From: Patescibacteria group bacterium
GTDB lineage: Bacteria; Patescibacteriota; Patescibacteriia; GWA2-46-9
DNA: 64,000 nt
NCBI GenBank assembly: GCA_041675205.1
Contig: JBAYUF010000005.1
Coordinates: forward strand, 6,159 to 70,158
Direction of reading: 5' to 3'
A program made the position numbers and the translations under genes. The stretch's first letter is position 1. Each line of letters opens with the position of its first letter. The notes under the pieces are model-generated. The model was not told the DNA's origin. It was given only the letters and a program-made list of their open reading frames with translations, and ran no database searches. Positions 451 through 56,769 of this stretch are shown one piece after another.

Positions 451-1764
451 ATGGGTGTAATGAACGTGCTTCGGCAAATTTGGCAGGCGAAAGATTTGCG
501 CCGCAGTCTTATGATTGTGGTGGGAATGCTAGCTATTTTCCGCGTTCTTGCACACATTCCTTTGCCTGGTGTCGATCAAGAGAATTTGCGGGCGCTTTTT
601 GCCGGCAACCAGCTCCTGGGGTTTGTGAACATTTTTTCTGGTGGTGGTCTTGAGAATTTTTCTATCGTTGCTTTGGGTGTTGCGCCGTATATTACCGCCT
701 CCATCATTTTCCAGCTTTTGGCTATGGCGGTGCCGAGTCTTGAAGAGCTTTCCAAAGAGGGTGACTATGGTCGGCAAAAGATTAACCAGTACACACGCTA
801 CGCTACGGTTCCATTGGCCGCACTGCAAGGCATTGGTATTATCACCCTACTCCGTCAATCGCCAGCCTTGGGTGTACCGGTGTTGCCGGCTATCATGACC
901 CCATTTGTGTATGGGTCGCTCATCATCACCATGATTGGTGGTTCGATGTTACTCATGTGGATTGGGGAACTCATAACTGAGCGAAAAATAGGTAATGGTA
1001 TTTCGCTTCTTATCTTTGCTGGTATTGTTTCACAGTTACCATCGACCGTTATCAATACCTGGCAATTGTTACGGAGCCCAGGCGGCGGCATTGATACGGC
1101 ACAATTAATGCAAATTGGCGTCTTCTTAGCCATTGCCGTAATAACTATTTATGGGGTGGTGTATGTAACGGAAGCGCAGCGGAATGTTCCGGTGTCGTAC
1201 GCCAAGCGCGTTCGCGGGAGTAGAATGTTTGGCGGCGTTGATACGCATTTACCACTGCGGGTTAACCAAGCTGGCGTTATCCCAATTATTTTTGCCATTT
1301 CAATTTTACTATTTCCACCATTAGCCGCCCAGTTTTTTGCTGGTGCCACCACGCCATGGCTCGCAAATATGGCTAATGGCATCACGCGCCTTTTCCAGAA
1401 TCAAACGTTTTACGCCGCTAGTTATTTTGTGCTTGTTTTCATTTTCACCTACTTCTATACCGCAGTCATTTTTCAGCCAATACAAATTGCGGAGAATCTT
1501 CAGAAGCAGGGCGGTTTTATCCCTGGTATTCGTCCCGGACGACCGACGGCTGAGTATCTTGGGTACGTTATAAATAGAATTATTTTTGCGGGAGCTCTCT
1601 TCCTTGGAACCATCGCCGTTTTGCCACTGGTGATGCAGCAGACCACCGGTATTACAACGCTCGCGATTGGCGGAACGTCGCTCCTCATCGTTGTTTCGGT
1701 GGTGATTGAAACAGTGCAGCAAATCAAAGCGCAGCTTGTCATGCGCGATTACGAAAGCTTTTAG
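451..1764 (+). CDS. secY: preprotein translocase subunit SecY
   Basis: 10-TM protein with the [11 protein letters not shown] signature. ATG at 451 follows the L15 stop at 444-446; the track ORF start at 421 overlaps rplO. Confidence 0.9.
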
Positions 1765-9804: not shown

Positions 9805-9880
9805 GGCCCACTTAGCTCAGTTGGTAGAGCATCTCCATGGTAAGGAGAAGGTCCGCAGTTCGAATCTGCGAGTGGGCTCC
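9805..9880 (+). tRNA. tRNA-Thr (anticodon GGU)
   Basis: Hand-folded cloverleaf: acceptor GGCCCAC/GTGGGCT, D-arm GCTCAGTTGGTAGAGC, anticodon stem TCTCC/GGAGA with loop ATGGTAA, T-arm GGTCCGCAGTTCGAATCTGCG. Confidence 0.8.
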
Positions 9881-9991
9881 ATTCGACTCGGTTTGCCTAT
9901 GGCAAACCTCGCTCATGGCAAGCCATCTATATTGAGTCGAATGTCCTGAGCGACTGTAAGGAGTCGAAGGGCGAGTGATAAGTTTTAGTCT

Positions 9992-10214: not shown

Positions 10215-10290
10215 GCCGCCTTAGCTCAGCTGGTAGAGCAACACTTTTGTAAAGTGAAGGTCCCCGGTTCGAGTCCGGGAGGCGGCTCCA
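10215..10290 (+). tRNA. tRNA-Thr (anticodon UGU), CCA encoded
   Basis: Acceptor GCCGCCT/AGGCGGC, anticodon loop TTTGTAA, T-arm CCCGGTTCGAGTCCGGG. Confidence 0.8.
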
Positions 10291-10389
10291 ATAGCGTACA
10301 TTTTGATTTATCAAAATGTTTGCAACGTCAGTAGTCCCGCCAGCGGGCGGGGCTCCAGTAGTGTATAAAACAGGATTAACTACTAAAAA

Positions 10390-11280
10390 ATGTTTCTTTT
10401 CTTTTTCAATCCGTTTTTGCTAGGGTACTTTATTTTACCCGCGTCATTGTTTGCTCTGGCGGTCGGTTTCTATAAATATCGTCAAAAGGAATTATCCGTC
10501 AATCAGAAAGCAAAAAAAACTGCCTTTGTTTCAGCAGTTCTGGTTTTTGTTGTGTACACTGCCTACACAATTTATCTGATTTCAATCTCGACTAATTCAA
10601 CCGCAATTTTGGGCGTAATAGAAATACCATTCTCTGGCATTCCGCTCGCATTATTTGCTTACGCAATTGAATGGTCCCTAGCATATTTGTTTTTTTCTAA
10701 AGTTACAAAGGAATCATATACCGGAGAAAATCATTCGCGACGGATAATCATTGCGGCTGTCGTAGTTGCACTCGTCGTAATTCTAGGATCGGTGGAAAGC
10801 TATAGAACCGCTCTTGCCATGAAAGTCAGCAATAGTACAAAGGCAGGGGAGATACAAAAAGTCTACGATTCTTTTTTTGTGAAGTACGATGATAAAATTC
10901 TGAGCCAAATTGCAAGTAATGAGTACACTCCTGTTGAGGTTTTAAACGAACTTGCCCACGATGATCGCGAACGTGTTCTTCACGAGGTTGCTCGTAATCC
11001 AGCAACGCCTCTCGAAGCGCTACGCTTTATGTATGAAAATCAGGGCAGCGAAAGATTTGGTGACAGATACGTAGCGTATGATCTCGCAGTTAATCCTAGT
11101 ACACCGCTCGACATATTGCTTGAACTTAGCAAGAGCGATGATGATGTGGTTCGAAGCAATAGCACATATAATCCCAATCTTCCCCTTGAAATTTTGTGTG
11201 AGCTAAGCAAAGAGCAAAAGGGCGTAGTGTCGTCGCAGGCCAAGTCAAATATCAAAGCCCGCGGGGTCGCCTGTCCTTAG
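10390..11280 (+). CDS. membrane protein with C-terminal leucine-rich-repeat-variant (LRV-like) repeats
   Basis: Four or five N-terminal TM helices, then three repeats of the NP(S/A)TPL(D/E)xLxxL...VR(S/E) type. AT-rich relative to the flanks. Confidence 0.55.
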   Translation: MFLFFFNPFLLGYFILPASLFALAVGFYKYRQKELSVNQKAKKTAFVSAVLVFVVYTAYTIYLISISTNSTAILGVIEIPFSGIPLALFAYAIEWSLAYLFFSKVTKESYTGENHSRRIIIAAVVVALVVILGSVESYRTALAMKVSNSTKAGEIQKVYDSFFVKYDDKILSQIASNEYTPVEVLNELAHDDRERVLHEVARNPATPLEALRFMYENQGSERFGDRYVAYDLAVNPSTPLDILLELSKSDDDVVRSNSTYNPNLPLEILCELSKEQKGVVSSQAKSNIKARGVACP

Positions 11281-11620: not shown

Positions 11621-11694
11621 GGGGGCGTAGTGAAGTGGCATCATGCGGGTCTCCAAAACCTAAGTCGTAGGTTCGATTCCTACCGCCCCTGCCA
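11621..11694 (+). tRNA. tRNA-Trp (anticodon CCA), CCA encoded
   Basis: Acceptor GGGGGCG/CGCCCCT, D-stem GTGA/TCAT, anticodon stem CGGGT/ACCTA with loop CTCCAAA, T-arm GTAGGTTCGATTCCTAC, discriminator G. Confidence 0.75.
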
Positions 11695-11695
11695 G

Positions 11696-11735
11696 AAAAA
11701 TCCGTCACCATTTGGTGTACGGATTTTTCTGTTAT
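11696..11735 (+). terminator. intrinsic terminator hairpin (AAAAATCCGT...ACGGATTTTT), A- and T-flanked
   Basis: Perfect 10-bp stem flanked by an A-run and a T-run. A second, near-identical copy lies at 14652-14690. Confidence 0.7.
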
Positions 11736-11860
11736 TGGAAGGCGGAGTCGAACCTGGGGAAGGGGTCGGGGAACGGGAGTTCCCCGTGGCGGAATTATTC
11801 AAACCGAGGGGTTTGAAAGAGTCGCGGAGCGACGATGGTTCTAGCGAAGCGGATTCTACC

Positions 11861-11882
11861 GCCCCTGCCAGTTTGAGCTAGC
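11861..11882 (+). repeat. direct repeat of the tRNA-Trp 3' end (GATTCTACCGCCCCTGCCAG), att-like
   Basis: Matches 20/21 nt of tRNA-Trp positions 11674-11695. A further partial copy (CATCTACCGCCCTTGCCA) lies at 16262-16280. Confidence 0.7.
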
Positions 11883-11996
11883 ACAAGAAGCATCGTTTCA
11901 AGAGAGTACACGTTAGGATCAATACCCAGGCGAAAGCCTGGGTATTGGCGTATTAGGGCGAAAGAATTGAATTTGCATATATGATATTATGTCCTT

Positions 11997-12755: not shown

Positions 12756-12765
12756 ACAGAGTCCG

Positions 12766-12856
12766 CTCGAGGTGCATTGTTTTGATCATTGAAACAAGGC
12801 CCCAAAAGCCTTACTGGTGTTGACCGATTGAGGTTCGATCTCGAGGTGGCCTGCCA
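12766..12856 (+). repeat. structured intergenic repeat, family A, copy 1 (CTCGAGGTG...GGTTCGATCTCGAGGTGGCCTGCCA)
   Basis: Aligned by eye with four other copies. Conserved ends and a central AAGGC/GCCTT hairpin; the 5' hairpin varies in sequence but keeps its structure. Confidence 0.75.
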
Positions 12857-13032
12857 AAAGAGTTCTGTCTGTGAAAGGCCTTTTTAATACAGTAATCATT
12901 GACAAGGGATGCCTTTTTCCATACAGTGCTGCTCGTCGTGGATGTAGAAGATTCGTAAGTTTCAATTCACAACTCAGGGCTTGGTCGGCTCTGACCCACA
13001 GAGAAGCCGAAGAAATTCGGCAAGGAGGAACC

Positions 13033-13626: not shown

Positions 13627-13680
13627 GGGGCGGGTTCGGTTGGTTGCAACAAGCTTCCGACCGACCCGCCCTTCGTCCTT
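13627..13680 (+). repeat. GC-rich imperfect palindrome, family B copy 1 (GGGGCGGGTTCGGTTGG-TTGCAACAAGCTT-CCGACCGACCCGCCC)
   Basis: Long imperfect inverted repeat with a conserved loop. A second copy at 24810-24866 follows the other high-GC cassette. Confidence 0.65.
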
Positions 13681-13711
13681 TTCAAACATTTTTTTATTTG
13701 AAGTTACTGAG

Positions 13712-13803
13712 CTCGAGGTGCGGCGTTTCGTTCATCTAAAATAGACCCCAAAAGCCTTACTGGTGTTGACCGATTGGGGGTTCGGTCTCGAGGCGGCCTG
13801 CCA
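13712..13803 (+). repeat. structured intergenic repeat family A, copy 2
   Basis: Same ends (CTCGAGGTGC ... CTCGAGGCGGCCTGCCA); hairpin GACCG...CGGTC fully paired in this copy. Confidence 0.75.
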
Positions 13804-13848
13804 AAAGAGTTCTGCCCGAGGAGGGCGGGACTTTTTTGTTTTTATTTT
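13804..13848 (+). terminator. intrinsic terminator (AAAAGAGTTCTGCCCG-gagga-GGGCGGGACTTTTTT)
   Basis: GC-rich stem with G-U pairs, A-run upstream and T-run downstream. Related copies at 12857-12885 and 16281-16320. Confidence 0.65.
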
Positions 13849-14486: not shown

Positions 14487-14560
14487 ATAAATATTATCAT
14501 AAATAGGAACTCGTGATCGGGCCGTGTCACTTTTGTCACTTTTCACTAAATCCGCAGGTG

Positions 14561-14651
14561 CTCGAGGTGTGTCGTTTTGATCATCGGAAAAAGGTTCCAA
14601 ACGCCTTACTGGTGTTGACCGATTCGGGTTCGGTCTCGAGGTGGCCTGCCA
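14561..14651 (+). repeat. structured intergenic repeat family A, copy 3
   Basis: CTCGAGGTGT...GGTCTCGAGGTGGCCTGCCA, followed directly by the AAAAATCCGT terminator copy. Confidence 0.75.
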
Positions 14652-14690
14652 GAAAAATCCGTCACCGTTTTGGTGGACGGATTTTTCTGT
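14652..14690 (+). terminator. intrinsic terminator, second copy of the AAAAATCCGTCACC...ACGGATTTTT hairpin
   Basis: Near-identical to 11696-11735. Confidence 0.65.
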
Positions 14691-14773
14691 TGTTGGGTGA
14701 AAGGAATCGAACTTGAGAAGGGGGTCGTAACTGCAAGAGGAGAAGAAAAATTAGATTATGATAGAATAAGGTT

Positions 14774-15844
14774 ATGAAAATTGCAGATATCAATAAGTAT
14801 AGTTGGATAAAAAATTGGGGTGGAAACTGGAGTTTCCTGACGTGTTTTTACTTTGCCAATTACTATACAGGTGAAATGTGGAAGCAGATGGGTAAGGGTA
14901 TAAAAAAAGCCGTCATCATTTCGAATAATGGATATGGTTTTTGTTATTTCGATCCTAGTGATCGAGAATTATATGGAAAATACATAGGACTAAAAATAGG
15001 TAAGAATAAAGCGGCAGCTTTGAAATTTAGTAATGAACTAAAAAATCAAGCCGACACCTTGATTGAATATACTCACAAGTTAAGGAAGATGAAGACCGTT
15101 TCCTCAGTAGAGTATTATGATTTTCTGAGAAAATTTCTAGCATATTCTGGCCCGCACATGAGCATTCGGCCTACAGTTGATTATCTGCCAGAAAAACAGG
15201 TGAGACTGGTTCTGCCAATTTTCGAAAAAACTAGATTGTACGTAGAGGATGTTTATTTTGCGACAGAAGTGTTTATGCGTCATTGGGCCGAACAATTATC
15301 TGAACGAATGCGAGTCAATCCAAAATTCATACTCTCTTGCACGCCGTCCGAAATTAAGAATTATTGGCTTCATCAAAAGCTACCACCAACAAAGATTTTA
15401 AAAGCGCGATTTGTATCAAGCGGTATTATTTTTGATCGATTAGAAAACAAGGTTTTTGTTGGCCGCACCGTGGAAAGAATTGAAAAACTTCTTCAAGGCA
15501 GGCCGGACAAAAAAGAAATTAAGGGCCAAACAGCCTACGGAGGATTGGTTAAAGGTAACGCAAGAATCATTTTTAATCCTACGGTTCATAGCGCGCGAGT
15601 TTTTCAGAAGGGCGATATATTAATTACTGGAATGACAAGGCCAGAATTTTTACCTTTGATGCGAAAAGCTGGTGCAGTTGTTACAGATGCTGGAGGTATT
15701 TTAAGTCACGCTGCAATTACAGCCCGTGAAATGAAAATACCGACCGTCATAGGCACTACTGTTGCGACCAAAATTTTCAAAGATGGTGATATGGTTGAAG
15801 TTGATGCCACCCACGGAGTAGTAAGAATACTAAAATCACAGTAG
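14774..15844 (+). CDS. PEP-utilizing-enzyme mobile (phosphohistidine swivel) domain protein with uncharacterized N-terminal domain
   Basis: C-terminal GDILITGMTRPEFLPLMRKAGAVVTDAGGILSHAAITAREMKIPTVIG matches the PEP-utilizer His domain (catalytic His in SHAAI). About 37% GC. Confidence 0.6.
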   Translation: MKIADINKYSWIKNWGGNWSFLTCFYFANYYTGEMWKQMGKGIKKAVIISNNGYGFCYFDPSDRELYGKYIGLKIGKNKAAALKFSNELKNQADTLIEYTHKLRKMKTVSSVEYYDFLRKFLAYSGPHMSIRPTVDYLPEKQVRLVLPIFEKTRLYVEDVYFATEVFMRHWAEQLSERMRVNPKFILSCTPSEIKNYWLHQKLPPTKILKARFVSSGIIFDRLENKVFVGRTVERIEKLLQGRPDKKEIKGQTAYGGLVKGNARIIFNPTVHSARVFQKGDILITGMTRPEFLPLMRKAGAVVTDAGGILSHAAITAREMKIPTVIGTTVATKIFKDGDMVEVDATHGVVRILKSQ

Positions 15845-15935
15845 CTCGAGGTGCATCATTTTTGCCATCAAAATAAGGCCCCAAAAAGCCTCACTGGTGT
15901 TGATTGATTGGGGTTCGATCTCGAGGTGGCCTGCC
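15845..15935 (+). repeat. structured intergenic repeat family A, copy 4
   Basis: Begins immediately after the TAG stop at 15842-15844. Hairpin 3 carries compensatory changes (GATTG/CGATC). Confidence 0.75.
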
Positions 15936-16420
15936 GTAGAAGGAGGAGTGTCCGAATGGCTGTTCGTCTTTTCTGTTATATGAGTTGTCTAGACAGGTGT
16001 GTGTGCCTTCACTATACTACTTACTATATGGATGAATCACTTATCATACAAAAGCTGGTTTCCTTGGATGAAAAGATTAGTGGTATTGCGACTCAAGACA
16101 GCCTGATAAAACTTTCTGATGACATCACGCAGGCACTTGATGACCAGCTTGTTATTTTGCAAAGATTGGATTAAGAGAGGCTTTTCACTATGGAACGAAT
16201 AAAGAGAATTGAAGCGGATGTTGAAGAATTAAAATTACAACTGAAAGTGGCTTAAGAGCTTCGACTTCATCTACCGCCCTTGCCAAAAGAGTTCTGCCCG
16301 TCGGGGCGGGACTCTTTTTACGTGAGAGAATATTGAAAAAGAGGGTATTTTTTATTGTAGAAAGATAGTACAGCGAGAATCAGAGGTATGGTAAACTGAT
16401 TTTGCTGACTAAATGACTCT

Positions 16421-16939: not shown

Positions 16940-18424
16940 TTGGACTCACTACGTAAGCGAAATATGAAGTTTGATAATTTTGAAATTTACGAAAGAATTT
17001 ATAGTAGCCATTGGTTTCTGACTTCCTACAATGGAATCGGATTTATTTTTGATTTCCCAAAAATCGGCGGTGGCAATTTTCTAAAGAAAGTCATTTATGT
17101 GATGGAAAATCAGATGTGTCGCTATATATTTAATCATAAGGAGTTTGAGCTGGCTGCCAACTATACTGCCGATAAATTAATCAATAATAACAAATGGAGA
17201 AAAGAAGTTTACGAAAAAATTGATTATTTTACAAAACAGTATTTTGATGCAGGAGAAAATTTAAGAGATTCAAATTTATCTTTGCTCTCTAACAAAGAGC
17301 TAATTAAACGCATTCGACGAATAATTGTTTTTCAGCATTACCATCAAGTCTACAGTGTTTTGGCCAATGGAGTAGTTTTAGATGGCCGCAATCATATGTC
17401 GAATAAAATTCGAGATGAATTACGAAATAATTTAAACTTCCCTCCGAAGTTTGAGAATTATTGGAGCACATTAACTCAAATTACGAGGATGAGTCTTCGG
17501 CAGAAAAAAGATTATGAAATTTCTCTTTTAGCAAAAAAGGTTGGAATACTAACTCAGAAACAAATTGAATCAAAATTAAAAAAGCTGCATAAAGAGTATT
17601 GTTGGCTCGACTATAATAATATGGGACCGGCAACGTCGTTTGATGCGTTTCGACAGCAACTTAAAATGGCAAAGCGGAGCGATAAGGACTTGAATGTACC
17701 GAAGCGTTTGGCAGTTTTGAAGAAAAAACAAAGACAATTGATGTCTACATTGAAATTTAACCGAAGGTCTAGATTTTTGATTGCATTAGCCCAACAGGTG
17801 ATTTGGCAGAAAGGGTATCGAAAGGATGTTCAGTATCATGGATTTTATTGCTATGAGCCCTTGTTGCAAGAGCTCGTAAGAAGAAAAAAAGTTTCTGATT
17901 GGCAAACATTGAGTTTCCTATTCCCTTGGGAACTTGAGGGTTATATAAAATCAAATAAACCGACCACTGCTGAATTGGAACAAAGGCGCAAGCTTTCAGT
18001 CTTTATGGTGACAAGAGCGGGACATTCAATCATGGTAGGAAAAAAAGCAAAGATGACTGTAAAAAAATTTGGATCACTTGAAAATTTTACAAGTGTAACC
18101 GAAGTAAGGGGTCAAGTTGCGTATACAGGATTAGTTCGCGGTAAGGTTAAAATCATTCAAACTCCGTCAGACATGGTCAAAATGAACAAAGGGGATGTTC
18201 TCATGTCCCAGGCAACCAGTCCTGATTTACTGCCCGCAATGAAAAAAGCTGGTGCAATTGTTACGAATACCGGTGGTTTAATTTGCCATGCTGCAATAAC
18301 TTCTCGCGAATTAAAGATTCCTTGTGTAGTTGGCACAGCAAAAGCAACCTTAGTCTTTAAAGACGGAGATTTGGTAGAGGTTGATGCAACTAGCGGAGTC
18401 GTAAAAATAGTAAAATCAGAATAG
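16940..18424 (+). CDS. PEP-utilizing-enzyme mobile-domain protein, paralog 2, with larger uncharacterized N-terminal region
   Basis: C-terminal GDVLMSQATSPDLLPAMKKAGAIVTNTGGLICHAAITSRELKIPCVVG is homologous to the C-terminus of 14774-15844. AT-rich. Confidence 0.6.
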   Translation: MDSLRKRNMKFDNFEIYERIYSSHWFLTSYNGIGFIFDFPKIGGGNFLKKVIYVMENQMCRYIFNHKEFELAANYTADKLINNNKWRKEVYEKIDYFTKQYFDAGENLRDSNLSLLSNKELIKRIRRIIVFQHYHQVYSVLANGVVLDGRNHMSNKIRDELRNNLNFPPKFENYWSTLTQITRMSLRQKKDYEISLLAKKVGILTQKQIESKLKKLHKEYCWLDYNNMGPATSFDAFRQQLKMAKRSDKDLNVPKRLAVLKKKQRQLMSTLKFNRRSRFLIALAQQVIWQKGYRKDVQYHGFYCYEPLLQELVRRKKVSDWQTLSFLFPWELEGYIKSNKPTTAELEQRRKLSVFMVTRAGHSIMVGKKAKMTVKKFGSLENFTSVTEVRGQVAYTGLVRGKVKIIQTPSDMVKMNKGDVLMSQATSPDLLPAMKKAGAIVTNTGGLICHAAITSRELKIPCVVGTAKATLVFKDGDLVEVDATSGVVKIVKSE

Positions 18425-18514
18425 CTCGAGGTGCGTCGTTTTCGTCTTCGAAACAAGGCTCCAAACGCCTTACTGGTGTTGACCGACCGGGGTTCGATCT
18501 CGAGGTGGCCCGCA
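18425..18514 (+). repeat. structured intergenic repeat family A, copy 5
   Basis: Starts right after the TAG stop. Its 3' end is degenerate (GGCCCGCA instead of GGCCTGCCA). A terminator hairpin CTGCC-ttaaac-GGCAG-TTTTTT follows at 18523-18551. Confidence 0.7.
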
Positions 18515-18934: not shown

Positions 18935-19015
18935 CGAGCGGGGACTAATCGCAAATCAGGAACATAAATAAACTCACACTGCCGCTGAATAATGGTTTTG
19001 ACGTCCTCCACGATG

Positions 19016-19099
19016 CCCTGCCATCAGAAACGACCCGTAAACTCGGGTCGTTTCTGGTAGAGGGGAGTGGGACATAGAACTGTGATAGAATATTTAAGT
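19016..19099 (+). promoter_or_regulatory. terminator-promoter junction module (CCCTGCCA / 13-bp hairpin / extended -10 TGATAGAAT)
   Basis: Perfect hairpin CAGAAACGACCCG-taaact-CGGGTCGTTTCTG, then GGACATAGAACTGTGATAGAAT. ATG of the next gene is 9 nt after the -10. Confidence 0.6.
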
Positions 19100-20278
19100 A
19101 TGCAAAAAATTACTACAAGCGAGTACGCGGATTTGACACAGCACGAACTAGAGGCGCTGAAACATGAGTTTAACCTTGCGGATGCACATACTCATCAATC
19201 GCAATCGCTCACCCAGCGGAAGATTATAAGTCGACTACCAAGCCTCTGGTACCAATCGGAAAGAGCCACACAGGTCGAAATGGAGAATAAATTTATTCGT
19301 TCTTTTTTTCAGTATCATCAACAGCCTACGGCATTGAAAACACCTTCATTGTTAGTCTATGCAGCCTCCATTGGGATGGTAATTGTCTCTAACTATTTCA
19401 AGAAAAAACAACTGTCCGTTCAGCTGATAACCCCTTGTTTTGATAATCTTCCTGACCTACTAAGAAATCTTGGAGTACCAATTAAGCCGTTGCGAGAAGA
19501 GTTATTAGAGGACGCTAGTGCTATTTATCAGAATCTAGAGCGACATTGTAAAAGTGACGTTATTTTTCTTGTCTCTCCCAATAATCCGACGGGGTTTGAA
19601 CTTACAGGTAACGTAGGCACTGACTATAAGGCACGATTTAAGGAACTGATTCGCTTTGCCAAGAATCATAATAAAATCCTTGCGTTCGACTTTTGTTTTG
19701 CTTCGTTTATAGTGCAGGATGCAAAAGTACCTACGTTTGATGTCTACAGCCTGCTAGAAAAATCGGGTGTGAGCTATATTGCCATTGAGGACTCTGGGAA
19801 AACGTGGCCGCTGCAAGATGCCAAGGTGGCACTTATTAAAGCGAGCAAGAATCTTTATCCTGAGCTCCACAATATTCATACGGCGTATTTGCTCAACGTT
19901 TCACCATTTATTTTGAATCTTGTAAGCGAGTATTGTGAAGATTCGATAAAAGACAAGGGTTCTAGTATCAAGAACCTGCTTGAACGAAATCGCAAGATTG
20001 TTAAAAAGGAATTAAGCGGAGACCTGCTTGAGTTTATGGAACCTGGCACACTTGTTAGTGTCGCGTGGTTCAAGATTAGAAATTCGAAGATTATGGCAAC
20101 GACCTTGCAGAAGCATCTCTATCGCAAGGCAAGGGTGTACGTATTGCCAGGAACATACTTTTTTTGGGATAAGCCGACCAGGGGAGAAAGGTATATACGA
20201 ATTGCCTTAGCGCGTGACACGATTATGTTCAAAAAAGCAATCGCAAAAGTTAAGAAGGCTCTCTATGCATACAGGTAA
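19100..20278 (+). CDS. PLP-dependent aminotransferase (class I/II fold)
   Basis: SPNNPTG motif and a candidate PLP-lysine in EDSGKTW. Start moved to the ATG at 19100 because the track start at 19067 lies inside the promoter element. Confidence 0.6.
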   Translation: MQKITTSEYADLTQHELEALKHEFNLADAHTHQSQSLTQRKIISRLPSLWYQSERATQVEMENKFIRSFFQYHQQPTALKTPSLLVYAASIGMVIVSNYFKKKQLSVQLITPCFDNLPDLLRNLGVPIKPLREELLEDASAIYQNLERHCKSDVIFLVSPNNPTGFELTGNVGTDYKARFKELIRFAKNHNKILAFDFCFASFIVQDAKVPTFDVYSLLEKSGVSYIAIEDSGKTWPLQDAKVALIKASKNLYPELHNIHTAYLLNVSPFILNLVSEYCEDSIKDKGSSIKNLLERNRKIVKKELSGDLLEFMEPGTLVSVAWFKIRNSKIMATTLQKHLYRKARVYVLPGTYFFWDKPTRGERYIRIALARDTIMFKKAIAKVKKALYAYR

Positions 20279-21510: not shown

Positions 21511-21613
21511 CTCCGTGTATACATATCAGGACGGTAACTAGATAAAGCAAAGTTCTGCAGTTGAAGTTCTAGTTTGATAGCTACCCAATTCTAGGTTCAA
21601 ACTTGTGTACTAG

Positions 21614-21692
21614 CCCTGCCATCAGAAATGACCTATAAACTCGGGTCGTTTTTGATAGAGCGAAACAGGACATGGAACTGTGATAATATAAC
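21614..21692 (+). promoter_or_regulatory. terminator-promoter junction module, copy 2 (degenerate hairpin; extended -10 TGATAATAT)
   Basis: GCCCTGCCATCAGAAATGACC...GGACATGGAACTGTGATAATAT. ATG at 21696 is about 7 nt after the -10. Confidence 0.55.
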
Positions 21693-22396: not shown

Positions 22397-23347
22397 GTGA
22401 CGATGATTCTAGTCCCGCTGTGCGGGACGGATTCAACTATTTCCGAGCCGCTCCTTGTTACGATACGAGACATAGTTGAGTACCTCAAAATCCTATTTAT
22501 GCGATACGATTACAAAATTAGCCGCGCTGTTTCATTCGCCATTGAAACGCACGAAATTAACCAAAAACAAAAGCGGAAGGGAAAAGATATTGCCTACATC
22601 ACGCATCCTCTCACTGTTGGGCTTATATTGTCGCGCTGCGGTGCTAGTGACGAGGTCGTAGTGGCGGGCATACTGCATGATACTGTTGAGGATAGCGTTG
22701 ACGATCACAAAGTAACTATCGCGATGCTTCAAGAACGTTTTGGTAAGAAAGTTGCTGAACTCGTTACTAGTGTCACCGAAACAAACCGAGCGCTGCCATG
22801 GAGTGAGCGCAAGCGTGAAGCACTCGAACATGTTGCATCATTTTCACATGAGGCGTTGCTGGTGAAATCCGCCGATGTCATTAGTAATGCAACCGAAATC
22901 ATAGATGACCACAAGCATGATGGCGACTCAGTGTTTGCTCGTTTTAATGCGCCAAAGATTGATGTTCTTCAGAACTACTTATGGGTAATTACGGCCATTA
23001 TTAAATGTTGGCCAGACAGCCCACTTGCAGAAGACTTGCGTTCCGTTGCTAATGGACTACAGGATATGGCTGCGCTTCATTTCATGCAGAACCATCGAGC
23101 TATTGTTATTGAGTATCGGGATTACAGTGAAGACATGCCTATTCAGTGCCCGGTGTGTGATTGGAGTGGTACGCCCAAGGAAAGTGGACTCCTCAATACT
23201 GACAGCCAGGCAGCGCTTGATGTCTCCTGCCGTAATTGCGACAAGATTCTGCTCGTCGTAGAGTATGCCTCTGGCAATGAGGTGGGTAACGAAAGTGAGA
23301 TTGCATTTATTCCCAAGATGAAAAAGAAAATGGACGAAAGTAGCTAG
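22397..23347 (+). CDS. HD-domain phosphohydrolase (RelA/SpoT-type ppGpp-hydrolase-like) with C-terminal CxxC...CxxC zinc ribbon
   Basis: AVSFAIETHE...GKDIAYITHPLTVGLIL...GILHDTVED (HD motif); CPVCDW...CRNCDK at the C-terminus. True start may be the Met at 22499. Confidence 0.55.
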   Translation: MTMILVPLCGTDSTISEPLLVTIRDIVEYLKILFMRYDYKISRAVSFAIETHEINQKQKRKGKDIAYITHPLTVGLILSRCGASDEVVVAGILHDTVEDSVDDHKVTIAMLQERFGKKVAELVTSVTETNRALPWSERKREALEHVASFSHEALLVKSADVISNATEIIDDHKHDGDSVFARFNAPKIDVLQNYLWVITAIIKCWPDSPLAEDLRSVANGLQDMAALHFMQNHRAIVIEYRDYSEDMPIQCPVCDWSGTPKESGLLNTDSQAALDVSCRNCDKILLVVEYASGNEVGNESEIAFIPKMKKKMDESS

Positions 23348-23611
23348 GCATTGCTTCGAAGCACTTTCTTTTTAAGCTAGAGTGATCCTGGATCAAGCAC
23401 CGCAAGCGTTTTCAAGTCTGGTACATAAAATCCGTTTGACTGCCGTATACTGGTTCTAACGTCCTCTATGATGCCCGCCAGTTTGAGCTAGCACGAGAAG
23501 CATCGTTTCAAGATAGTTAGAAATCAACACCCAGGTGAAAGCCTGGGTGTTGATGTTTGATAGGTAAACCAGAAAAGTTTGGAACTGTGATAAAATTACA
23601 TAATGCAAGAT

Positions 23612-24101: not shown

Positions 24102-24259
24102 AGCCCCTTCTTGATAGCTGTTGTTCTGCTGTGAGGTGGTTTTTAATAATAAAGTAATCATTGACAAAGAAAGTTTTTTTCAATAAGGTGTTGCTCGTCG
24201 TGGATGCGGAACGATTTTTAAAAACGAAGAAAGATTCAAATATTCGGTACGGAGGAATC

Positions 24260-24809: not shown

Positions 24810-24866
24810 GGGGGGCGGTCTGATTGGTTGCAACAAGCTTCCAAACGGCCCGCCCCTCGTCCTGTC
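24810..24866 (+). repeat. GC-rich imperfect palindrome, family B copy 2
   Basis: GGGGGCGGTCTGATTGG-TTGCAACAAGCTT-CCAAACGGCCCGCCCC, with the same loop as 13627-13680. Confidence 0.65.
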
Positions 24867-24908
24867 CAAATATTTAATTTTCATTTGAAACCATAGTTCT
24901 CAAGGTGG

Positions 24909-24991
24909 CCTGCCATCAGACATGACCCGTGAACTCGGGTCTTTTTTGGTAGAGAGGAGTAGCACATGGAACTGTGATAGTATTCGTACGT
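24909..24991 (+). promoter_or_regulatory. terminator-promoter junction module, copy 3 (extended -10 TGATAGTAT)
   Basis: GGCCTGCCATCAGACATGACCCGTGAACTCGGGTC...CACATGGAACTGTGATAGTAT. ATG at 24992 lies 8 nt after the -10. Confidence 0.55.
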
Positions 24992-25615
24992 ATGGAACTA
25001 TTTCTAACATCGAGCGTTCACGCTGTGGCGCAAGACATTGCCAAGAAGATTAACCTTGTTAAGGCAAACAAGCTAGTGTTTATCACTACTGCCGCTGAGC
25101 CGAAAGAGGAAGGGGATTTAACCTGGCTTTATAACGATAGACAGGCGTTGGTCGATGCTGGCTTTAATGTCGTTGATTATACAATTACTAATAAGAACAA
25201 AAGCGAGCTAGAGCGTGACCTTGAGGGTTTCGACTACATCTATCTCTCAGGAGGGAATACCGCTTATCTTTTACAACAATCTCAAAAATCAGGATTTGTT
25301 GCTTTGGTAAAAGAACTCGTTCAGAAGAAAGGTAAAGTCTACATCGGGACTAGTGCAGGCTCAGTCATTGCCGGGCCGAGACTCTCTGATTACTACATTG
25401 ACGAATCAACAGAGTTGGAAGACAAAAAAGGATATGGGTTTGTAAATTTTACAATTGTTCCGCATTGGGGTTCTGGTGATTTTAGAAAAACGTACTTAGG
25501 CGAGAGATTGAAGATTGTGTATAAAGAAGATCAAGTGCCCCTACTTCTTCTTACTGATAATCAATACGTTCACATAAAAGATGAGCAGATGAAGATCATT
25601 GATGTGAAAGAGTAA
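24992..25615 (+). CDS. S51-family peptidase (dipeptidase E/cyanophycinase-like)
   Basis: LSGGNTAYLL and GTSAGSVIAGP motifs. Confidence 0.6.
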   Translation: MELFLTSSVHAVAQDIAKKINLVKANKLVFITTAAEPKEEGDLTWLYNDRQALVDAGFNVVDYTITNKNKSELERDLEGFDYIYLSGGNTAYLLQQSQKSGFVALVKELVQKKGKVYIGTSAGSVIAGPRLSDYYIDESTELEDKKGYGFVNFTIVPHWGSGDFRKTYLGERLKIVYKEDQVPLLLLTDNQYVHIKDEQMKIIDVKE

Positions 25616-54538: not shown

Positions 54539-54952
54539 TTATGGAGTCGTCTTTATAGCCCGCGAAGAAGTGTCTAGCCAGGATTCAGGAAGAAGTTCAA
54601 ACATTTTTATATTTCTATCTTGCGCTACGTGAACAAGCGTTTCTTTGTTGTTGGCGTGTATTTGAAGCAGTAGTTCTCGACAGCGACCACAGGGTGGAAT
54701 AACAGTTCCGGAATTTTTAACCGCCAACATTTCTACAACTTCAGATTCACCTGATTTTAACATTTCAGCCACTGCTGCGTGTTCAGCGCAAAAGCCAAGA
54801 CTGCAGTCAGTATCAATGCAGATTCCCGTATAAATATTTCCATCCTTCGTTTTTAGGGCGGCTCCGACCCCGCCACAACTTGCAAAAGGGGTTAGTTGAC
54901 GGCCAGCACTTATCGCAAATGCTTTTTGGTAGAGTTCTTCAAAATTATTCAT
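54539..54952 (-). CDS. cdd: cytidine deaminase
   Basis: CAEHAA...PCGRCRELL zinc-binding motifs. Confidence 0.8.
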   Translation of the reverse strand: MNNFEELYQKAFAISAGRQLTPFASCGGVGAALKTKDGNIYTGICIDTDCSLGFCAEHAAVAEMLKSGESEVVEMLAVKNSGTVIPPCGRCRELLLQIHANNKETLVHVAQDRNIKMFELLPESWLDTSSRAIKTTP

Positions 54953-54994
54953 ATTACCTTAAAAAAATTTCGATTGTTCGAAATGTATATTAAT

Positions 54995-55240
54995 GACGTT
55001 GGGCTGGTCCCGCTGCTGCGGGACTACTAGCTGTTGAAACATTCTGACTACATCAGAATGATCATTATCGTTGCGGGACCATATTCCCGGGGTTCGTCGG
55101 CCATGGGCATCGCCGAACCCTTCGAGTCCCGACGCACAACAAACTGTTGTTGTCCTCCAGCCCTCAGTCACGATGTTCTCCCGCCCTGTGGCGGGACTAC
55201 TGACTTTCAAAACATTATGACAACGTCATAATGCACGTTA
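54995..55240. repeat. tandem duplicated hairpin module sharing GTCCCGCC with the adjacent tRNA-Pro T-arm
   Basis: Two units of about 95 nt: TCCCGCTGCTGCGGGACTACT...CATTCTGACTACATCAGAATG and TCCCGCCCTGTGGCGGGACTACT...CATTATGACAACGTCATAATG. The hairpin arms carry compensatory substitutions. Confidence 0.55.
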
Positions 55241-55244
55241 GTGT

Positions 55245-55321
55245 GGTCGGGCTGGCGGGACTCGAACCCGCGACCTCGTCGTCCCGAACGACGCGCGCTA
55301 GCCAACTGCGCTACAGCCCGA
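55245..55321 (-). tRNA. tRNA-Pro (anticodon CGG), CCA encoded
   Basis: Reverse complement folds as CGGGCTG acceptor, GCGCAGTTGGCTAGCGC D-arm, anticodon loop TTCGGGA, T-arm GCGGGTTCGAGTCCCGC. Confidence 0.8.
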
Positions 55322-55425
55322 TATGAGGAAATTTGGAACCTAGTTTATTCGTCATTAAACAAGGTTAGCCAAGTATAGCTGGCACAACGTTTTTACTCAA
55401 TTAGCGGGATTGACCGTAAAAGCCA

Positions 55426-56769
55426 TTAATCTTCCACAAAATGTATAAGCTTCTGTTGAAGCACTTCAATTTTATCCGGTAATTTTGCAGCCATTGCGAG
55501 CGCCAGTTTTGCTGCCTCAGCGTCAGTTGGTCCTTCTCGAAGTGAAATACCAAGCTGCTGTGCAGTTTCTAGTATTTCGTCAGACTTTGTTTTTCGATTT
55601 TTTAACATCAGTTCAAGTGGCTCCAAAATGAACTGTCTTTGATTCGGAATAAAGTTTTTTGCAAGCTTGAGAAGCGCTGAGCAGTAGCTATAAATAGCGT
55701 CGTCATCAAATCCGCTTAAAGCCGCCTTGCCTTGTAAAGTAAAACGGACATGACTATCTGGCGGAACAAAAATTGTTTTACGGTCAAAAGTAAAAGGTTC
55801 AGGAATGGCACTGTCGCTTGGTTGCACGGTAAGCCCTTTTTCGTACACCGCTGTTGCTAAAAATTTAATTAACTGTGAAATGGCGACTAAAATTTCGGGG
55901 TCGTTCATGTCTGGCGCACGATGTTCAATCGTGCCTACAGAATTTATTCGTATTGGATTCCATGAGGCGTCTAGCAGGGAGCCACGTTTTGCAAGTGAGC
56001 GTGCCTGTATACCAAGCTTATGTAGAGTAGCTTTCCAGTTGTGGGATCGTTGCTGAATAACATGTAGTAAATTCCCTCCGGTAGCTTCGTATGGTTGAAG
56101 TGCTCCAAGGTCTTGATAATTTGCATAGAGACCACCGGGATAATTAAATGGTTTTCCGCCTCGGTAGGCAATTATTCGGCTAGCTTTCCCGAGTCGTGTT
56201 CCTTGGTAAAAAGGTGATGATTGAGAAAAAGCAATCAGTGCCGGGTCCATGGCTATAAACAGATTATGTACATTCACGAGGTTCGTCTGTTGATTAGAAA
56301 AAAATCTATATACAAGATTCTTTGCAGTTTTACTATATACACCGCGCGGTAATGTAAAGTGGCAGTGCATGCCAGCGCACCGGCCAGCAATTGCAAAGCG
56401 TTGTTTACCAAAAATTTCTTCTTGTGCTCTATATCGTGGGGCATTCCGAATCGCCGGCGTGAATGTTCCCGGGTATGTTCCGAGATGGTAAATAACTAAC
56501 TCCTCCTTTTCTGCGGCGGCTAGCAAAGCTTTAAAGTCCTCCATGGACTGCCACATAATATTTGGCAAGTTTGTATGCGGCTTCGTTCGTAGCTCAATCA
56601 GGTTTTCAGATGCCTCGTATGTTGCATCTACGCTCGGGCTATCTGCACGTAATCGTTTAAGTAAACGGTCTGCGCCATTATGAATATACCCATCCTTGTC
56701 AAGAATGTGGAATTCAAATTCAATACCGAATGTTAGGTGTTTCAGCGGAACAGCGTTTATTTTTGTCAT
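55426..56769 (-). CDS. carboxylate-amine ligase (glutamate-cysteine ligase family 2, YbdK-like)
   Basis: N-terminal TFGIEFEFHILD and overall GCS2-like organization. Confidence 0.6.
   Translation of the reverse strand: MTKINAVPLKHLTFGIEFEFHILDKDGYIHNGADRLLKRLRADSPSVDATYEASENLIELRTKPHTNLPNIMWQSMEDFKALLAAAEKEELVIYHLGTYPGTFTPAIRNAPRYRAQEEIFGKQRFAIAGRCAGMHCHFTLPRGVYSKTAKNLVYRFFSNQQTNLVNVHNLFIAMDPALIAFSQSSPFYQGTRLGKASRIIAYRGGKPFNYPGGLYANYQDLGALQPYEATGGNLLHVIQQRSHNWKATLHKLGIQARSLAKRGSLLDASWNPIRINSVGTIEHRAPDMNDPEILVAISQLIKFLATAVYEKGLTVQPSDSAIPEPFTFDRKTIFVPPDSHVRFTLQGKAALSGFDDDAIYSYCSALLKLAKNFIPNQRQFILEPLELMLKNRKTKSDEILETAQQLGISLREGPTDAEAAKLALAMAAKLPDKIEVLQQKLIHFVED

Follow-up and report, generated by a model that had tools for sequence, protein, structure and literature searches.

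The spacer behind the tRNA-Pro(CGG) gene on a contig from the metagenome-assembled genome of an uncultured Patescibacteria bacterium (JBAYUF010000005.1; the 64-kb stretch analyzed here is called the window) contains two copies of a module built from two hairpins. The module recurs behind a second tRNA, about 45 kb away, and once more in another organism. It is a real, lineage-specific small family and not a local oddity, with four copies known from two organisms in the collections scanned. Partial tRNA copies beside tRNA genes are an already known kind of feature; to our knowledge, there is no earlier description of a conserved module of two hairpins whose stems co-vary and in which orphan tRNA ends form hairpins. 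Tentatively, and with somewhat less than even confidence, we read the spacer as a stack of attachment site (att)-type units, each a tRNA 3' end, a trailer, and a terminator hairpin, that would have arisen by insertions at the T-loop and whose hairpins would still work as terminators.

The tRNA-Pro gene (55244-55320, minus strand; called by ARAGORN, 67.1 bits with the Rfam tRNA model) encodes its own CCA, and cdd, which encodes a cytidine deaminase of 137 amino acids, lies downstream of the stack (54539-54952, minus strand). The 290 nucleotides (nt) between them are at once the 3' flank of the tRNA and the 5' flank of cdd, and because both genes are on the minus strand, we read the spacer on that strand (tRNA-sense). 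As the original prediction stated, the spacer is rich in GC, with a content of 0.51 to 0.61 compared with roughly 0.31 to 0.47 in the adjacent coding sequence and 0.47 in the whole window. It folds far beyond shuffled sequences on either strand (z = -6.2 and -6.4). A second, independent sample holds the identical spacer, and this is its sole other occurrence. Comparison with Rfam returned tRNAs only, both for the spacer at E ≤ 10 and for the whole window at gathering thresholds, and a BLAST search of the spacer against phage genomes gave no match. A coding role seems unlikely for the open reading frames (ORFs) of 83 and 65 amino acids across the spacer, which cross the repeated hairpins and lack a ribosome-binding site.

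A two-hairpin module in four copies

On the tRNA-sense strand, the module consists of an AU-rich hairpin (hairpin 1, CAUU..AAUG), UUU, a conserved linker, and AGUAG followed by a GC hairpin, UCCCGC(C)/(G)GCGGGA. Module A (55168-55243, minus strand; covariance model, 90.3 bits; fold z = -4.0) directly follows the tRNA CCA and comprises a 10-nt trailer, hairpin 1A (55233-55213; CAUUAUGAC-GUU-GUCAUAAUG), UUUU, the linker GAAAGUC, and AGUAG with UCCCGCC-ACAG-GGCGGGA (55197-55179). Module B (54994-55070, minus strand; 82.1 bits; z = -4.8) has a trailer, hairpin 1B (55060-55040; CAUUCUGAU-GUA-GUCAGAAUG), UUU, the linker CAACAGCU, and AGUAG with GUCCCGC-AGCA-GCGGGAC (55024-55007), a hairpin that runs straight into CCAGCCCAACG (55007-54997), a copy of the tRNA acceptor 3' strand. 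Between the two modules lies a nonrepeated, GC-rich insert of 97 nt (55071-55167, minus strand), delimited by direct and inverted repeat finding and by its fold. Within it lie GGGCUGG (55163-55157), two hairpins (ACAACAA-CAGU-UUGUUGU at 55153-55136 and GGGUUCG..CGAACCC at 55121-55091), a perfect 11-nt copy of the tRNA T-arm in inverted orientation (55131-55121), and an orphan GGUCCCGC string (55080-55073). Behind module B, a third, partial unit (54956-54996, or 55010-54956 with its tRNA-end copy; minus strand) emerged from direct repeat finding, the fold (-4.9 kcal/mol), an alignment, and the pair table. It consists of an AU-rich trailer, the hairpin AUUUCGA-ACAA-UCGAAAU (54984-54967), and U7, and it stops at the AAGGU of cdd, so that the feature reaches 54956. 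The hairpin and U7 look like a terminator just before cdd.

The original prediction had described a tandem duplication of units of about 95 nt. The shared unit is shorter, about 55 to 77 nt: direct repeat comparison aligned 55013-55067 with 55186-55240 (55 nt, 75% identity, starts 173 nt apart), and the covariance model delimited copies of ~77 nt (E about 1e-22 to 1e-24). Moreover, the copies are a dispersed pair and not a tandem duplication, because the unrelated 97-nt insert lies between them and Tandem Repeats Finder reported nothing in the spacer. The two hairpins were described correctly, and both are perfect (CATTCTGA/TCAGAATG at 55040-55060 and CATTATGAC/GTCATAATG at 55213-55233). The exchange of C:G for A:T between them is truly compensatory and keeps the structure.

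A covariance model made from the module copies and run with filters off found exactly three full matches in the window; the rest were within noise. The third, module C (10289-10368, plus strand; 80.3 bits; z = -5.8), follows tRNA-Thr(UGU) (10215-10290, plus strand; ARAGORN) and sits ahead of an unrelated ORF at 10390. It begins with an 8-nt trailer, CAUUUUGA-UUUA-UCAAAAUG, and UUUGCAACGUC, and continues with the GC hairpin AGUCCCGCC-AGCG-GGCGGGGCU (5' arm also written AGUAGUCCCGCC) and CCA, in full AGUCCCGCCAGCGGGCGGGGCU-CCA. The string GCGGGACTACT recurs at 10330-10340, inside a complete module and 40 nt downstream of tRNA-Thr(UGU). The fourth module lies on an unrelated 1.15-kb metagenome contig (L015; Ga0315286_10584779), between tRNA-Leu and a structured element, called element E below, that ends ...CCGCUCCA. 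Thus, the repeat is not unique to the tRNA-Pro locus.

Beyond these copies, the family is very small. The pattern AATGTTT-N8-AGTAGTCCCGC matched seven times in 185,579 species-representative genomes, always by chance, and eight times in JGI metagenomes, where the L015 match alone was real; the same pattern had no match in viral contigs. Looser viral scans returned only a generic phage GC hairpin and chance matches, and a 17-mer from the core of element E hit chance matches or unrelated phage repeats in viral contigs. Across ~106 kb of loci of other Patescibacteria, the covariance model found no module. The homologs of GCS2 (upstream of tRNA-Pro; ≤50% identity) and cdd (≤66%) were not adjacent to tRNA-Pro, synteny was absent even in the nearest relatives, and relatives of the L015 phosphatase (71 to 84% identity) occurred in different contexts lacking the module. 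The phage hairpin, AAGTAGTCCCGCC-N4-GGGCGGGACT, is intergenic in three viral contigs (L048, 1930-1970; L050, 13720-13760; L051, 510-545). Although its stem is that of the module GC hairpin, the AAGTAGTCCCGCC/GGGCGGGACT hairpin is probably of a generic terminator type because its context is unrelated.

Hairpin 1 bears signs of selection for its structure. All stem pairs are intact in five versions (modules A, B, and C, L015, and the hairpin of the third unit, before cdd), and compensatory exchanges occur at three stem positions: position 5 is A-U, C-G, or U-A; position 6 is U-A or C-G; and position 8 is A-U or G-C. The loops vary freely (GUU, GUA, UUUA, UUC, and ACAA). In the GC hairpin, the stem sequence is kept and the loop is variable (ACAG, AGCA, AGCG, and CGU). 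Departures from Watson-Crick pairing are limited to G·U pairs, which are seen on the tRNA-sense strand at the top pair of hairpin 1B and as U·G in the GC hairpin of C and L015; on the opposite strand they would read as A·C mismatches. None of the four modules varies in AAUGUUU or AGUAGUCCCGC, and each module folds well beyond shuffles (z = -4.0 to -5.8). Hairpin 1 starts 8 to 10 nt past the CCA end in A, C, and L015, and UUU(U) always stands behind it: the hairpins of 8 to 9 bp are followed by UUUU, UUU, and UUU, and the 7-bp hairpin is followed by U7.

The original prediction named a structured noncoding RNA or tRNA-linked repeat as its alternative, and the covariation and the strand-specific G·U pairs favor it. 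In its most developed form, and as the main rival to our reading, the module would be a dedicated tRNA-trailer cassette acting at the RNA level, a functional 3' external transcribed spacer (3'ETS) co-transcribed with the tRNA. We hold this to be possible, though clearly not probable. Hairpin 1 with its UUU and the GC hairpin would direct 3' processing, termination, or protection, and the cassette would have spread between tRNA loci by gene conversion via the shared T-loop and then duplicated locally. Every copy indeed lies immediately 3' of a CCA-ended RNA and in the same orientation; the stems co-vary while the loops are free; the linker UUUnnAAnGYYAGUAG and the UCCCGC are invariant; the G·U pairs are confined to the tRNA-sense strand; and the fold z-scores are strong. 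Moreover, the GC hairpin of C and L015 (AGUCCCGCC/GGCGGGGCU) is a 9-bp helix followed by CCA, much like a minihelix. The cassette is known, however, from only four copies in two genomes and is absent from the ~106 kb of related loci and from the pattern scans of genomes, metagenomes, and viruses. Its stems are nearly all perfectly Watson-Crick paired and the spacer folds equally on both strands, which would suit young DNA palindromes too, and CCA is missing from copies A and B. If the RNA-level reading is true, the module is a hitherto unknown, conserved element of tRNA trailers whose CCA hairpin resembles a minihelix, and it is relevant to the formation of tRNA 3' ends in a lineage whose set of RNases is reduced. 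On either reading, a family with four known copies is too small, for now, to be of more than limited general importance.

Two kinds of known RNA signal offer a comparison. tRNA operons carry intrinsic terminators and functional 3'ETSs, for example, the 3'ETS of leuZ in Escherichia coli. As in these, a hairpin and U-run stand directly 3' of the tRNA, the stems are kept up by compensatory changes, and the third hairpin has a U7; unlike these, the module stems are AU rich with U-runs of 3 to 4 nt, and a second GC hairpin, invariant in sequence, has no U-run behind it. tRNA-like processing signals include the tRNA-like domain of transfer-messenger RNA (tmRNA), the t-elements of plant mitochondria, and minihelix substrates of RNase P and the CCA-adding enzyme. 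The 9-bp helix with CCA in C and L015 resembles them, as does a domain predicted from the insert and module B together (54994-55170, minus strand; minimum free energy, -74.5 kcal/mol; z = -4.7). From this one sequence, the domain is predicted to form a cloverleaf-like five-way junction closed by tRNA-Pro acceptor sequence (UGAC..GGGCUG/CAGCCC..GUCA), and under the trailer-cassette explanation it would be a tRNA-shaped RNA. The module differs from these signals in having no T-loop or D-loop motif, models of tRNA and tmRNA fail on it, and A and B have no CCA.

Neutral local duplication would require no function at all. Slippage or template switching around the palindromic T-arm would have produced copies that have not yet decayed, an account that fits the perfect palindromes, the 11-nt inverted T-arm copy, and the equal foldability of both strands, and that has a parallel in other Patescibacteria, where some tRNAs are followed by direct and inverted copies of their ends. 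We consider it unlikely, however, since copies that are only ~75% identical have no broken pair and carry double compensatory changes at three stem positions. Moreover, the module is also present 45 kb away and in another organism, and two independent samples are identical in sequence.

Copies of the tRNA 3' end in the spacer

The modules share more with tRNA-Pro than their position. The tRNA ends ...GGUUCGAGUCCCGCCAGCCCGACCA, and its T-loop and 3' end, GGTTCGAGTCCCGCCAGCCCGACCA, make up the stretch that is copied downstream. The GC hairpins open with the T-loop/T-stem string of tRNA-Pro, AGUCCCGCC, and the sequences shared with the tRNA are AGUCCCGCCA in A (10 nt), AGUCCCGCCAGC in C (12 nt), and AGUCCCGC in B. 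As originally predicted, a T-arm segment is common to the units, AGTCCCGCCA in the proximal copy (10 nt, 55197-55188) and AGTCCCGC in the distal copy (8 nt, 55024-55017); a direct match of 10 nt equals the maximum among 200 shuffles. A third copy of the tRNA 3' end, CCAGCCCAAC, is found at 55007-54998. Read directly, the module B hairpin is GTCCCGC[AGCAGCGGGAC]CAGCCCAAC, compared with GTCCCGC-CAGCCCGAC in the tRNA. By this comparison, module B reads as a putative tRNA 3' end with an 11-nt inverted insertion that creates the hairpin. The segment behind it (CCAGCCCAAC, trailer, hairpin, and U7) aligns with the true tRNA end, its trailer, hairpin 1A, and U4 at a score of 29, compared with 15.4 ± 3.2 for shuffled sequences and reached in 2 of 500 shuffles. 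Given this alignment and the reading of module B, the spacer therefore resolves into three diverged units, each made of a tRNA 3' segment, a trailer, an AU hairpin, and a U-run.

The T-loop itself may be the common denominator. The T-loop string GGTTCGAGTCC is common to tRNA-Pro and tRNA-Thr(UGU), both of which bear modules, and is absent from tRNA-Thr(GGU), tRNA-Tyr, and tRNA-Trp, the tRNAs of the window that do not. With five tRNAs only, this is a hint that the string marks module-bearing tRNAs.

In the reading that we prefer, repeated site-specific recombination would have inserted DNA at the tRNA T-loop, each insertion would have pushed the older unit of 3' end, trailer, and terminator downstream, and the cargo would later have been lost. 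Copy 1 would be the genuine tRNA end followed by hairpin 1A. Copies 2 and 3 would be orphan 3'-end copies whose GTCCCGC(C) strings became perfect GC hairpins by short inverted additions, and the 97-nt insert would have been placed within copy 2. The AU hairpin and U-run of each unit may have been selected as an intrinsic terminator, and three terminators in series would insulate cdd from the strong tRNA promoter. Covariation of the hairpins could then be understood, because the AU hairpins and U-runs would remain under selection as terminators.

Additive islands seeded at tRNA genes, with scattered partial tRNAs and degenerated elements, are documented, among them the tycheposon islands of Prochlorococcus, and it is in the scattered partial tRNAs and degenerated elements that our reading matches them (bioRxiv 10.1101/2020.12.28.424599). 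Like partial-tRNA direct repeats (attL/attR) and such islands, the spacer has copies of a tRNA 3' segment that start in the T-loop and lie downstream of the intact tRNA, and the copies are stacked, as after serial integrations. Williams in 2002 is said to have distinguished classes of integrase sublocation, the T-loop among them. Degenerated tRNA islands also have a counterpart in this same genome, where a tRNA-Trp island (below) holds scattered tRNA ends and no integrase. Unlike such islands, the tRNA-Pro spacer has no integrase, cargo, or att-flanked element, its orphan copies were remodeled into perfect hairpins, and a conserved trailer, hairpin, and linker travel along, also beside another tRNA and a non-tRNA element. 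If the att-scar reading is true, the very small genomes of Patescibacteria gain and lose genes by tRNA-targeted insertion and retain a 3'-end copy and terminator at each junction, which would aid in finding flexible islands in uncultured bacteria.

The original prediction had taken the repeats for partial att copies of a tRNA-targeting element, and part of that idea stands. A tRNA 3' segment is directly repeated away from the intact tRNA, the segment behind module B aligns with the tRNA end, and B resembles a tRNA end with an 11-nt insertion; the tRNA-Trp island and a serine recombinase at the tRNA-Pro(CGG) of a relative (below) add indirect support, and the idea is plausible. A number of results weigh against it. 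Pfam domains of integrases, recombinases, and transposases are absent from 58 ORFs across the window, no recombinase or cargo was found near the repeats, which are separated by 70 to 250 nt of noncoding DNA, and no allele without the insert and no empty site was found, the other sample being identical. The insert, tried as a degenerate tRNA-Pro, was rejected because 69 of 500 shuffles score equally, which is not significant. The linker is invariant in all four modules, as would not be predicted of a decaying scar. The U-runs behind hairpins 1A, 1B, and 1C are short (3 to 4 U), and a generic terminator scan (thresholds, ≥3 GC pairs and ≥5 T in 8) called none of the hairpins. Finally, module C adjoins tRNA-Thr and yet carries a tRNA-Pro-like 12-mer, and the L015 module follows a non-tRNA element. 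From these two contexts, the module therefore acts as a portable or conserved entity and not as a mere local scar.

A hidden RNA gene, either a permuted tmRNA in two pieces or an insertion-bearing pseudogene of tRNA-Pro, would also account for tRNA sequence in the spacer. At 80% thresholds, ARAGORN proposes a permuted tmRNA from the tRNA 3' half and GGGCUGG, which could pair with either CCAGCCC; with the thresholds at 60%, a second tRNA-Pro(CGG) is proposed at 55033-55124; and the Rfam model tmRNA_permuted scores 17.7 bits. Both genes appear only at these relaxed thresholds and were rejected. Default ARAGORN finds neither of them, the 60% threshold yields six calls in 500 nt, the Rfam score falls far below the 47-bit gathering threshold (E = 0.45), and the tag that the tmRNA would encode, VPQQRDQPNVINIHFEQSKFF, does not resemble those of tmRNAs. 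What would be the acceptor piece is, moreover, a complete functional tRNA, the alignment of the tRNA with the insert is the one matched by 69 of 500 shuffles, and in a test for tRNAs and tRNA pseudogenes with Rfam RF00005 and ARAGORN, the true tRNA-Pro alone scored in the spacer region. We regard a hidden RNA gene as highly improbable.

The spacer could instead belong to cdd, as a cis-regulatory leader (riboswitch or attenuator) that ends in the weak hairpin and U7. The cdd start signal is AAGGU-N5-AUG, in which AAGGU is the ribosome-binding site; the U7 stands directly upstream of it, and the large predicted junction domain lies farther upstream, as a leader would have it. Such a leader is nonetheless very unlikely. 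The spacer matches no Rfam family at E ≤ 10, be it a riboswitch, a T-box, or another cis-regulator; in the closest cdd homologs (58 to 66% identity), which are from other Patescibacteria, the upstream region is short or unrelated and tRNA-Pro is not adjacent; and the module also stands ahead of the unrelated ORF at 10390 and, in L015, ahead of tRNA-Leu.

The junction of linker and GC hairpin suggests yet another origin. A GTAG followed by a GC palindrome is the anatomy of repetitive extragenic palindromic (REP) sequences, and because GTAG precedes the GC palindrome here, we considered a mobile hairpin of the REP or miniature inverted-repeat transposable element type. A REP-associated tyrosine transposase (RAYT) or a single-strand transposase of the IS200/IS605 type would move it, the element would favor tRNA 3' flanks, and GTAG and the palindrome would form its recognition hairpin. 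GTAG lies directly 5' of the palindrome in four of four copies (AGUAG-UCCCGC; as DNA, AGTAG with TCCCGC(C)..(G)GCGGGA), the copies are dispersed and intergenic like REP sequences, and a similar hairpin, TCTAGTCCCGC-TGT-GCGGGAC, occurs in another intergenic spacer (22408-22428, plus strand). Unlike REP sequences and the bacterial interspersed mosaic elements (BIMEs) that they form, however, the module has a very low copy number, with three copies in 64 kb, all tRNA adjacent and tRNA oriented, and no inverted pairs in a BIME-like arrangement. The two hairpins of the module are unrelated to each other, and among the ORFs of the window there is neither a RAYT gene nor an HUH/Y1 transposase domain. 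Thus, mobility of this kind seems quite unlikely. The hairpin at 22408-22428 lies 35 nt past the stop of an SDR gene; its stem is nearly that of the GC hairpin of module B, and it has no AU hairpin and no tRNA nearby.

The tRNA-Trp island and other tRNA trailers

The boundaries of the tRNA-Trp island are the same type of unit as the tRNA-Pro stack, there with cargo. The tRNA-Trp gene (11621-11694) is followed by a canonical terminator (11695-11729) and then by element E (about 11737-11870, plus strand), a structured sequence of roughly 135 nt with no Rfam match. Element E opens with GGCGGAGTCGAACC, which resembles T-arm antisense, and its final 15 nt (CTACCGCCCCTGCCA, 11856-11870) match the final 15 nt of tRNA-Trp at 15 of 15 positions. 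The homolog on L015 (1082-933, minus strand; 79% column identity) likewise ends with a tRNA 3'-end copy, in this case of the tRNA that opens the contig. Accessory genes run for roughly 13 kb past tRNA-Trp, to about 25 kb, and no integrase is among them.

The 3' boundaries of the accessory genes carry five repeats of about 95 nt, called W repeats, that end in GGCCTGCCA or a near variant, plus further repeats. The W repeats (12765-12867, 13711-13814, 14560-14654, 15844-15935, and 18424-18513, all plus strand) are 81 to 87% identical, have the consensus GCTCGAGGTG...GGGGTTCGATCTCGAGGTGGCCTGCCA, fold as a four-way junction, and mostly have a hairpin behind them. Most stand just downstream of a plus-strand ORF, those at 12765, 15844, and 18424 beginning ≤10 nt from its stop, and like cassette junctions they delimit accessory genes (GNAT, M15 peptidase, two PEP-utilizer proteins, and NUDIX). 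That they are tRNA-Trp pseudogenes was rejected: overall similarity is not significant at z = 1 to 2.6, the Rfam tRNA model is blind to them, and their likeness to tRNA-Trp is limited to the 3' ends and loop motifs. Directly past the stop of a small ORF, 16262-16325 (plus strand) reads TTCGACTTCATCTACCGCCCTTGCCA followed by the strong terminator AAAGAGTTCTGCCCGTCGGGGCGGGACTCTTTTT, and 16271-16285 is a copy of the tRNA-Trp 3' end (14 of 15 nt). In all, a strong hairpin stands directly behind eight of the nine tRNA-Trp-end-like copies examined, mostly a canonical terminator of A-tract, hairpin, and U-tract.

Perhaps the module, element E, and the W repeats are all sites of one uncharacterized system specific to Patescibacteria, though we think this rather unlikely. 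In such a system, small gene cassettes would meet at mimics of the tRNA 3' end (T-loop to CCA) with a terminator, and these junctions would be used for recombination and/or RNA processing. The system would work much as integrons do but be seeded at tRNA genes, and its recombinase gene would lie in another part of the genome.

Copies of a tRNA's own 3' end are not confined to this genome. Significant direct and/or inverted copies within 260 nt downstream were found for 5 of 18 Patescibacteria tRNAs, compared with essentially none upstream. In a relative (L037, 5000-6615; L036, 7600-9202), an ORF for a large serine recombinase of 520 amino acids is convergent with tRNA-Pro(CGG) and shares ~22 nt with the tRNA 3' end, with an HTH_17 (excisionase-like) gene nearby. 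This is probably an integrated element that uses tRNA-Pro(CGG); no partial tRNA-Pro copy of at least 11 nt was found at its far end within the locus.

Other trailers and repeats deserve mention. In other Patescibacteria, tRNA-Tyr of L018 (about 545-700, minus strand) is followed by a terminator, a perfect 20-nt inverted copy, and an 11-nt direct copy, and this element shares the motif GAGCGACG..GGTT.TAG.CGAAG with element E. tRNA-Ser of L023 (about 1515-1650, plus strand) has a 12-nt inverted and a 13-nt direct copy of its 3' end, and tRNA-Thr of L038 (about 640-745, plus strand) has a partial copy of T-arm and acceptor about 120 nt downstream. In the window, the trailer of tRNA-Thr(GGU) (9879-9991, plus strand) is highly structured (z = -4.7): a 10-bp stem, CAUUCGACUC/GAGUCGAAUG, begins in the CCA and encloses two hairpins, GGAGUCGAAGGGCGAGUG behind it repeats 7 nt of the tRNA 3' end, and its style, CAUU...AAUG, is that of the module hairpin. 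Within the tRNA-Trp island, the terminator and the first 40 nt of element E are repeated after the third W repeat (14645-14727 versus 11688-11768, 83%), and the 3' flank of E, with the 12-bp hairpin CAATACCCAGGCGAAAGCCTGGGTATTG, recurs at 23474-23552 (versus 11864-11947, 84%). These two pairs bracket an accessory block of roughly 12 kb without an integrase. The block from 12 to 25 kb holds more dispersed intergenic repeat families of 75 to 95 nt and 78 to 85% identity, some just upstream of ORF starts (19014-19105, 21613-21685, and 24906-24997; 12862-12953 versus 24123-24216; and 13627-13702 versus 24812-24889).

Finally, some observations concern sequences outside these repeats. About 240 nt of GC-rich, hairpin-rich noncoding DNA upstream of a histidine phosphatase gene (L043, 364-600; L044, 403-640; both plus strand) had been called as part of an ORF; the stretch has no Rfam match at E ≤ 0.1 and carries GAGGAAGTCC, which resembles the CR-I motif of RNase P RNA. 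Upstream of tRNA-Pro in the window, TTGAGT-17-TATACT (55372-55400, minus strand) is a promoter-like site by consensus match only. Farther upstream, the gene for the GCS2-family glutamate-cysteine ligase (55426-56769, minus strand) has no homolog above 50% identity, and its best matches include the DPANN archaea Woesearchaeota, Nanoarchaeota, and Aenigmatarchaeota, a range of matches that suggests horizontal acquisition of the gene.

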